This document shows, in pieces, positions 12,191 through 13,210 of a stretch of 36,007 bases of DNA. This stretch comes from an uncultured Chlamydiae bacterium (GTDB taxonomy: Bacteria > Chlamydiota > Chlamydiia > Chlamydiales > Parachlamydiaceae), in contig CAWHMU010000002.1 in the NCBI GenBank assembly GCA_963830365.1, forward strand, positions 1 through 36,007, in the 5' to 3' direction. Made by a program: the position numbers and the translations under genes. The notes below the pieces were generated by a model. That model was given only the letters and a program-made list of their open reading frames with translations. It was not told where the DNA came from and did no database searches. How positions within the stretch are numbered: the first letter of the stretch is position 1; every line of letters begins with the position of its first letter.

Positions 12191-13210
12191 ATGACTTGCT
12201 TTCCACCGGCCCAATTGCGCGTAATGGACCACCAGAATTATCTCATTCAGGGGAATTTTAAAAAAATCGCTGAAACAGTAACTGATGATGTAGAACTAAC
12301 AATTTATCTTGATGACGAACGCATCGAAAAGATCTCGGGCAAAAAGGCGTATCTCGCAGAAATCGAAAAAATGCACCCACTGTTAGTCAAACATGTCGCC
12401 GCTACCAATCGTTATCAGAATTTCGATGACCATGGCGGCCTTGTTGCTTATAATTGTACTTGCATTCTTTTGGATACCCAATTCGATACAAACATGGCCA
12501 AAACGGCATCCGCTATCTCTACTGTGGGACAGAAAGTCTTTCTTTTCCGTGATGGCTTAATAAAGTCTATAGAAGTAAGAGAACATAGAGACACACTCAT
12601 GTCGTCAATCCCTGTTGATAAAAACACGGCGGGGATTCCGCAGTCTCAAGCGCGTGTTATGGACTTGGATACAGCTATTTTCACCGGTAGGGATTCACAA
12701 ATCAAGGCCTTAACCGCCCGTGATGTAGAAGTTACAATCTGCCTGAAAGGTCAAAAGCCGGTGACCACCTACAATCAAGACGATTTTATCAAATCAATCA
12801 GAGAGCGTCTCTGGCAGCCAGTAAGAAGATGCATGCAATTAGGATCTACCTATGAGGGTTTTTCTGATAGCTGCAATACAGGCACGCTCCATTTTAACCA
12901 TATCTTCAAAAAAGATGACCAACCCAATGGCATGACAAATGCCGTTTACGATACAGGATCACGGCTATTTACGATTGAAAATGGCCTCATTACAAAGATC
13001 CATACCGAACAAATTGAAATCCCTATCGCCTCTAAAAAGACCTCTGCTGCAGCTGAGGAAAAAAAATCAACCTGTGATGCCGATCCACAATTGGCGGCAG
13101 GACATGGCCTAGCTTTGGACGGATCGGCTTCCTCTTCATCTTCCTCTTCTTCCTCGTATTTAAGGATGTTAAAAAAAGAAGAGCCAGAGAAAGGCTGTGT
13201 GATTGCCTGA
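12191..13210 (+). CDS. tandem NTF2/SnoaL-like domain protein with C-terminal CaaX motif; candidate effector
   Basis: GGAGG SD; internal duplication (PAQLRVMD..DVELTI..FRDGLIKSI / QSQARVMD..DVEVTI..IENGLITKI); poly-Ser; ends KGCVIA. Confidence 0.75.
   Translation: MTCFPPAQLRVMDHQNYLIQGNFKKIAETVTDDVELTIYLDDERIEKISGKKAYLAEIEKMHPLLVKHVAATNRYQNFDDHGGLVAYNCTCILLDTQFDTNMAKTASAISTVGQKVFLFRDGLIKSIEVREHRDTLMSSIPVDKNTAGIPQSQARVMDLDTAIFTGRDSQIKALTARDVEVTICLKGQKPVTTYNQDDFIKSIRERLWQPVRRCMQLGSTYEGFSDSCNTGTLHFNHIFKKDDQPNGMTNAVYDTGSRLFTIENGLITKIHTEQIEIPIASKKTSAAAEEKKSTCDADPQLAAGHGLALDGSASSSSSSSSSYLRMLKKEEPEKGCVIA

Follow-up and report, generated by a model that had tools for sequence, protein, structure and literature searches.

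The P0001 locus

The window analysed here, that is, the whole stretch of 36,007 nucleotides, belongs to an environmental chlamydia (phylum Chlamydiota) whose genome, denoted G000, comprises 2.73 Mb in 48 contigs and is 82% complete. Flanked by a polyamine ABC operon on one side and a UhpC-like transporter on the other, an open reading frame (ORF) of the plus strand encodes a protein of 339 aa, P0001, with the C-terminal end SSSSSSSSSYLRMLKKEEPEKGCVIA, followed by TGA (the C-terminal sequence up to the stop reads KKEEPEKGCVIA). The features of the locus are the following.

10926..11741, minus strand: divergent orphan gene, 271 aa, with DKEN at residues 16-19 (from sequence)
12180..12185, plus strand: AGGAGG, Shine-Dalgarno-like, 5 nt upstream of the P0001 ATG (from sequence)
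12191..13210, plus strand: P0001 gene, tandem NTF2-like protein (ORF; coding score 0.15, positive)
12221..12598, plus strand: NTF2-like domain 1, residues 11-136 (Pfam SnoaL_2, E 3e-4; profile recovery, E 3e-7)
12644..13030, plus strand: NTF2-like domain 2, residues 152-280 (AlphaFold2 model, pLDDT 92.7, pTM 0.84)
13031..13195, plus strand: low-complexity tail of 55 residues with the mixed-charge segment RMLKKEEPEKG (from sequence)
13130-13156, plus strand: run of nine Ser, residues 314-322, within the tail (from sequence)
13196..13207, plus strand: CaaX box CVIA (Cys336), TGA directly after (from sequence)
13219..13245, no strand assigned: 11-bp hairpin, 8 nt past the P0001 stop (terminator-like score on the minus strand only)

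The first-pass annotation of this DNA had described two repeats of roughly 130 aa, each ending in F-x-x-x-[DN]GLI-x-x-I, then a serine run and a CVIA terminus, and all these elements are borne out: two repeats of about 127 aa (residues 11-136 and 152-280) align with 20% identity (pairwise E 7e-5), the repeat-end motif occurs at residues 117 and 260, the serine run lies between repeat 2 and the C-terminus, and the protein closes with KGCVIA ahead of the stop codon. The GC content of the gene is 43%, against a median of 50% for the genes of the genome. The hydropathy profile of P0001 reveals neither a signal peptide nor a transmembrane helix (top 19-residue value, 0.83).

Fold of the two domains

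Single-sequence AlphaFold2 modelling of the whole of P0001 gave a pLDDT of 32.8, and the model of domain 2 described here was built from a 15-row family alignment. In this model, three N-terminal helices lie on a curved antiparallel sheet; the best Z score against solved structures is 14.8, with an rmsd of 2.5-3.0 A across 109-122 residues, and the solved structures that match best are those of NTF2-like proteins from bacteria, of the SnoaL/ketosteroid isomerase (KSI)/epoxide hydrolase kind. Foldseek aligns the model with KSI at TM 0.67-0.73, and the Atlas structures of P0001 and of its homolog P0003 have the same bacterial SnoaL/KSI-type neighbours. Domain 2 is thus predicted with high confidence to adopt an NTF2-like/SnoaL/ketosteroid-isomerase barrel, in agreement with the fold that had been assigned at first reading. 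No eukaryotic NTF2 is found among the best 50 structural matches listed for domain 2, a result that is compatible with kinship. At the sequence level, domain 2 has no match to Pfam SnoaL_2 (PF12680). Domain 1 matches that family with 21.8 bits, below the curated cut-off of 27 bits, and is also recovered by a profile built without either P0001 repeat; judged from these two matches, it is an NTF2-like domain. PDB sequence searches with the family gave no match under E 0.03, and the predicted complex of domain 1 with domain 2 scored 0.14, a value that speaks neither for nor against a pseudo-dimer of the two.

The catalytic Tyr14/Asp38 pair of KSI appears to be absent from both domains, with His14/Ile38 at these positions in domain 1 and Leu159/Ile183 in domain 2, in a register that is weak (profile positions 4-40 match KSI 2-38 at equal length, E 0.57). 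The 15-row family alignment contains no invariant column, and even in a 10-row alignment no acidic residue is invariant, a single Tyr being the only invariant residue there. From the family consensus, the oxyanion-hole Asp99 of KSI would presumably correspond to Lys115/Arg258 of P0001, a strand-5 position that we take to face the cavity.

The family and its terminal cysteine

Searches with P0001 as a single protein detected no relative in its own genome, in 300 other genomes or by word search, and phmmer, run against 1.84 billion representatives, yielded one, P0002 (ending in CLQQ), aligned on domain 2 only. A profile of the domain alone retrieved P0003 (CVIS) and proteins from genomes G010 (CVMM) and G261 (CALV); the next round added proteins with the ends CALV, CAVV and CETQ along with one that lacks a CaaX, and later rounds brought in eight further CaaX-less proteins and one truncated protein. 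Of these eight, one gene came from reading a locus by eye and another is the paralog in the genome of P0001, G000:C21:30366-30779. Because the matches to P0002, P0003, P0004 and P0005 excluded the tail, the CaaX was not part of their retrieval.

Among the 17 complete family proteins (the G175 protein, which runs off the contig end, is left out), eight have Cys at position -4, namely CVIA, CVIS, CLQQ, CVMM, CETQ, CALV twice and CAVV, with aliphatic residues after the Cys in six of the eight and non-canonical CLQQ and CETQ in the other two; the background for Cys at -4 is about 1.5% of ORFs (31.1/2018 in a positional control). The remaining nine, the paralog included, lack the terminal Cys. Sequence identity within the family is 13-30%, and the CaaX members keep the Cys at -4 at 15-30% identity, notwithstanding a post-domain tail that varies from about 10 to about 70 residues. 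Tail-blind profiles that left out one lineage at a time recovered every lineage then known among 2707 ORFs with E values of 2e-5 to 9e-16, against 0.1 for the best unrelated match.

A second feature follows the CaaX. The strand-5 pattern [GS]-x-[QKRE]-x-[FW], seen in P0001 as GQKVF (domain 1) and GSRLF (domain 2), is present in 9/9 domains of the eight CaaX proteins and absent from the 5/5 CaaX-less domains tested. This motif was defined post hoc from the alignment, and three proteins found afterwards, which by eye have neither the motif nor the CaaX, test its negative side only. The truncated G175 protein carries the motif as well, from which a CaaX end would be predicted for it. The expectation that homologs of P0001 would conserve the CaaX holds for its nearest relatives, the proteins with the strand-5 motif, all eight of which keep the Cys at -4, and needs qualification for the wider family, in which 9/17 proteins have no terminal Cys.

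Leaving out the query, Cys at -4 occurs in three of six lineages (binomial p 7e-5 for the 1.5% background) or, when the three later proteins are added, in three of about nine (p ~3e-4 by arithmetic). The tree of the family is unresolved, with two changes of the CaaX label, and a single CaaX clade is not rejected (p-AU 0.31). Since the CaaX lineages may therefore share one origin, the real evidence is the retention of the box at 15-30% identity and behind tails of such different lengths. By this measure, the CaaX box of P0001 is a selected feature, more than a product of chance.

The tandem two-domain layout is found in P0001 only, every homolog found having one domain, in searches that outside the genome scans covered proteins up to 594 residues. 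The family is sparse: it occurs in five of the 399 other genomes of the order, and a survey within the bacterial family gave matches in 5/72 genomes, one of them false. Pattern scans of genome contigs and viral contigs produced no further members. Several candidates were dropped, namely the metagenome loci L007-L009 (short frames with stops), a G287 match (an unrelated 826-aa frame, E 0.04) and a G436 match (internal stops). One of the CaaX-less members is a typical SnoaL_2-like protein. In G010, three tandem CaaX-less NTF2-like genes (L029:995-2386) are flanked by signal-peptidase-like and aminoacyl-tRNA-synthetase-like genes (named by eye), and a single NTF2-like copy is located at the matching place in G082 (L020).

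CaaX ends as putative prenylation signals in G000 and its relatives

CaaX prenylation is a reaction of the eukaryotic cytosol. We found no prenyltransferase family in G000, in a search of an 82%-complete genome with weak controls. Taken together with a selected CaaX box, these considerations imply delivery of P0001 into the host. In Ras proteins, a polybasic stretch or a nearby second Cys is needed for targeting to the plasma membrane rather than to endomembranes. The tail of P0001 is near neutral and has no polybasic stretch, and the next Cys lies 41 residues upstream of Cys336, which would favour an endomembrane over the plasma membrane.

As to the signal itself, CVIA, which had been singled out at first reading as a prenylation motif, is indeed a farnesyltransferase (FTase) substrate: according to the available part of the reporter study (PMC11152559), it is modified by both the yeast and the human FTase, and the same source lists the non-canonical CKQQ and CASQ among the modified sequences. 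The CLQQ and CETQ ends of the family appear to resemble the latter two.

To place P0001 among the proteins of its genome, CaaX ends were counted in the 2018 ORFs of G000 with at least 100 aa, the expectation being the frequency of the same pattern at offsets 1-40. The pattern C-x-[VIL]-x terminates 24 ORFs against 6.4 expected (p 9e-8; the count at any of these offsets is 11 at most); under a stricter pattern, which was selected once the list was known, there are 14 against 2.1 expected; and the excess persists among the 1783 ORFs with a positive coding score (18 against 4.9). Furthermore, the N-termini of the 24 ORFs are richer in S/T/P than those of the genome (0.26 vs 0.19, p 7e-4). A scan of 13 CaaX candidates identified one ankyrin match, one weak F-box match and two weak coiled-coil matches, with nothing in the other nine and no housekeeping family among the 13. 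The control sample, 2.63 Mb with 2056 ORFs, was taken from four related genomes (G090, G010 and G261 with 800 kb each, G109 with 232 kb) and contains no excess, with seven ends against 5.15 expected and, for the strict pattern, one against 1.45; the difference from G000 has a Fisher p of 0.002 for C-x-[VIL]-x and of 0.0005 for the strict pattern. We have to conclude that the expansion is particular to G000 among the genomes sampled; a phylum-wide excess finds no support in these four relatives.

The use of the signal is not confined to one genome, at least for a second CaaX family. The G000 member, G000:C18:70714-71760 (L170), ends in CTIC and has relatives in 12/60 family genomes; Cys at -4 is kept in seven of 13 relative loci (within L175-L188), so that CaaX use recurs across genera. 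At four other loci of this family, the place of the CaaX is taken by a basic-hydrophobic tail (for example KKKKKFFGLF), as though either kind of end could serve as the membrane anchor. Proteins of this family have about 340 aa, with a coiled coil and, by eye, a U-box-like segment (no Pfam match).

Some individual CaaX ends deserve mention in their own right. Three of the 13 candidates are orphan paralogs of 122-125 aa whose genes lie in tandem (G000:C36:138718-140062, L172); they end in CTIL, CIIL and CTIL, one of them with KKKKK ahead of the CaaX end. Pfam gave no match for them, and a search of 60 family genomes turned up no clear relative. The weak F-box protein (G000:C10:51814-52923, L167) ends in CSIQ and the ankyrin protein (G000:C33:40199-41287, L169) in CGIM, layouts that recall Legionella AnkB. 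A glycogen-phosphorylase-like enzyme (named by eye) has a Cys at -4 conserved between G000 and G109, and its ends, CRIF (G000:C45:189804-192368) and CRIY (G109, L152:16818-19364), were set aside as housekeeping, as were the thioredoxin-like ends CDLI and CDLT of G090.

Route to the host and possible function

G000 contains SctV, the type III export gate (TIGR01399, 885 bits against a cut-off of 692), and three full genes of the ATP/ADP-translocase family, findings that support the view that this bacterium depends on a host. In its composition, the N-terminus of P0001 does not resemble that of an effector (S/T/P 0.12, against a genome median of 0.20), and the NTF2-like fold starts after only about 10 residues. 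Given that P0001 has no Sec-type hydrophobic stretch and no membrane segment, the type III system is the likely route. On balance, secretion of P0001 into the host appears probable, and once the protein is in the cytosol, its farnesylation by the host would be highly probable.

The scenario that seems to accommodate these observations best is that the type III system injects P0001 into the eukaryotic host cell, where the host FTase would farnesylate Cys336 and the modified protein would be held at an endomembrane, for example the ER or the inclusion. The tethered NTF2-like pockets might then take up a small ligand of hydrophobic or amphipathic character, for instance a lipid; the strand-5 Lys115/Arg258 (Gln in relatives) could hold a hydrophobic ligand by its polar or acidic head. 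The first part of this scenario, P0001 as a prenylated, non-catalytic effector of a chlamydial type III system, is one to which we lean with modest confidence. The lipid-pocket role is the weaker half: that the NTF2-like domains form a ligand pocket, rather than a protein-docking surface or an enzyme, is plausible but falls somewhat short of probable, and a prenylated, non-catalytic effector with a lipid-ligand pocket is, as a whole, doubtful.

What else could the anchored domains do? They could dock a host protein at the membrane, either a small GTPase such as Ran or a partner of NTF2 domains of the G3BP/LDB1 type. The 13-30% identity of the family and its lack of an invariant column are what fast-evolving host-binding effectors display, human LDB1/LDB2 are among the Foldseek matches, and one CaaX effector of Legionella is active on Ran (PMC13081727, in the part available). 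However, the closest structures are bacterial and of the SnoaL/KSI/epoxide-hydrolase type, and the polar strand-5 residue kept in all CaaX members suits a small ligand, so a prenylated docking effector appears unlikely; for the same structural reason, the Ran binding raised in the first-pass annotation is unsupported. An anchored enzyme of the SnoaL/KSI/epoxide hydrolase type that modifies a host lipid or sterol would agree with the match of the fold to KSI, LinA, limonene epoxide hydrolase and the tandem enzyme Lsd19 (Z 13-14.5), and an active-site role for the conserved Gln/Lys/Arg of strand 5 is conceivable. Nevertheless, the replacement of the KSI Tyr14/Asp38 pair, albeit in a weak register, and the lack of an invariant acid render this explanation improbable. 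We infer that protein docking is the main rival to the tethered ligand pocket and, from the two observations just named, that an enzyme is the least likely role.

A more conservative possibility dispenses with the host altogether: P0001 could be an ordinary cytoplasmic SnoaL-like protein, with a terminal Cys that serves disulfide or metal chemistry or is there by chance. Nine family proteins without the motif, one of them the typical SnoaL_2-like protein, are in line with this, as are the hypothetical nature of any secretion signal in P0001 and the occurrence of C-x-[VIL]-x ends in some housekeeping genes. Yet the Cys never leaves position -4 in the eight CaaX proteins, and aliphatic residues come after it in 6/8 cases, despite the low identity and the very different tails; moreover, the excess in G000 is confined to offset 0 (24 vs no more than 11 at offsets 1-40), making a purely cytoplasmic protein very improbable. 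We therefore retain the prenylated effector as the preferred reading of P0001.

Relation to known systems

Among tandem NTF2 enzymes, Lsd19 and MonBI-MonBII resemble P0001 in having two NTF2-like domains per chain or pair (Z 13.1-14.0). Both are polyether epoxide hydrolases encoded in biosynthetic clusters, whereas P0001 has no such cluster, and we know of no CaaX on either. SnoaL_2/KSI-like NTF2 proteins (PF12680; PDB 4lmi, 3i0y, 1tuh, and KSI) share the three-helix, curved-sheet barrel, with Z up to 14.8; P0001 differs in scoring under the Pfam cut-off, in its 6-19% identity, in the apparent absence of Tyr14/Asp38 and in the added CaaX tail. The best Foldseek E values overall (4e-7 to 4e-6, TM ~0.66) belong to NTF2-like ORFans from giant viruses that infect amoebae (Tupanvirus A0A6N1NMY1, Marseillevirus), which share a host niche like that of P0001 and are 10-17% identical to it; in viral contigs, no relative was found at the sequence level.

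Host prenylation of effectors has already been shown for Legionella and Salmonella (PMC13081727, PMC3417404, as far as these texts were available). The prenylated effectors of Legionella (the Pel/CMP set, with AnkB and PelE/LegG1) have their counterpart in the roughly 13 G000 candidates, including the ankyrin and weak F-box proteins with CaaX ends. The Legionella proteins, however, are type IV substrates of a gammaproteobacterium, experimentally shown, whereas P0001 belongs to Chlamydiota and is a candidate. In the material available, which covers seven Pel effectors and does not mention Chlamydia (PMC13081727), no NTF2-like domain such as those of P0001 is reported for any of them. Salmonella SifA and GtgE, which are type III effectors prenylated by the host at a CaaX end (PMC3417404, PMC13423502, both available in part), come close to our reading of P0001 and differ from it in their unrelated folds, in their known targets and in being single proteins without a repertoire.

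Published inventories, in the portions available, include a CaaX census of 20 pathogens and one endosymbiont (PMC2916131) and a count of 54 CaaX proteins across 14 species that goes back to a 2011 census (PMC3417404). The available part of a treatment of chlamydial eukaryote-like families mentions neither CaaX nor prenyl (PMC4209131), and excerpts of a preprint (bioRxiv 10.1101/2024.11.28.625222) describe a chlamydia that has proteins with prenyltransferase domains, interpreted as modifiers of host GTPases. In the full-text literature searched, we found no prenylated chlamydial effector and no NTF2-CaaX effector, with the proviso that the censuses PMC2916131 (Table S1) and PMID 21983544 may list chlamydial CaaX proteins. 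P0001 can be regarded as a candidate effector that the host would prenylate and whose domain type is undescribed, and the strategy is one that we found unreported for the phylum.

Could this strategy be general? That host prenylation is an anchoring strategy of environmental chlamydiae is, taken alone, reasonably likely. The broader proposition, in which these bacteria generally anchor type III effectors in this manner, G000 alone has about 13 such effectors (a number that equals the Legionella set), the tag persists across genera in no fewer than two families and P0001 founds a family of lipid-extracting or lipid-sensing NTF2 pockets, is tentative and rather doubtful. If host prenylation does anchor their effectors, chlamydiae would own a membrane-anchoring route besides the Inc proteins, and a four-residue end would provide a cheap effector filter for uncultured symbionts. 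The roughly 13 orphan candidates of G000 and the second family, with relatives in 12/60 genomes, are directly testable in yeast or Dictyostelium.

Other features of the window

The divergent neighbour of P0001 (10926-11741, minus strand) has no Pfam or NCBIfam match. It had been proposed at first reading as a KEN-box gene paired with P0001: the neighbour and its DKEN do exist, but a functional pairing is unsupported, as the loci of P0001-family homologs adjoin other genes. The [DEN]KEN pattern occurs in 23/2018 ORFs of G000. Between the two divergent genes lies a long imperfect palindrome (11981-12086), partial copies of which are found on two other contigs.

Elsewhere in the window, a 740-aa protein (22059-24281, plus strand) combines an S/P-rich N-terminus with a protein-tyrosine-phosphatase domain (Pfam E 3e-18) and is likely to be an effector. 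At 675-1846 (plus strand), the overlapping ORFs 675-1037 and 1034-1846, the first with a P-loop kinase-like start (weak Pfam matches to AAA_33/CPT), may be one frameshifted gene. Further orphan ORFs outside housekeeping operons are located at 28362-30317, 3332-4039, 34671-35216 and 30787-31757; Pfam returned nothing significant for the first three, and the last two encode small hydrophobic proteins.
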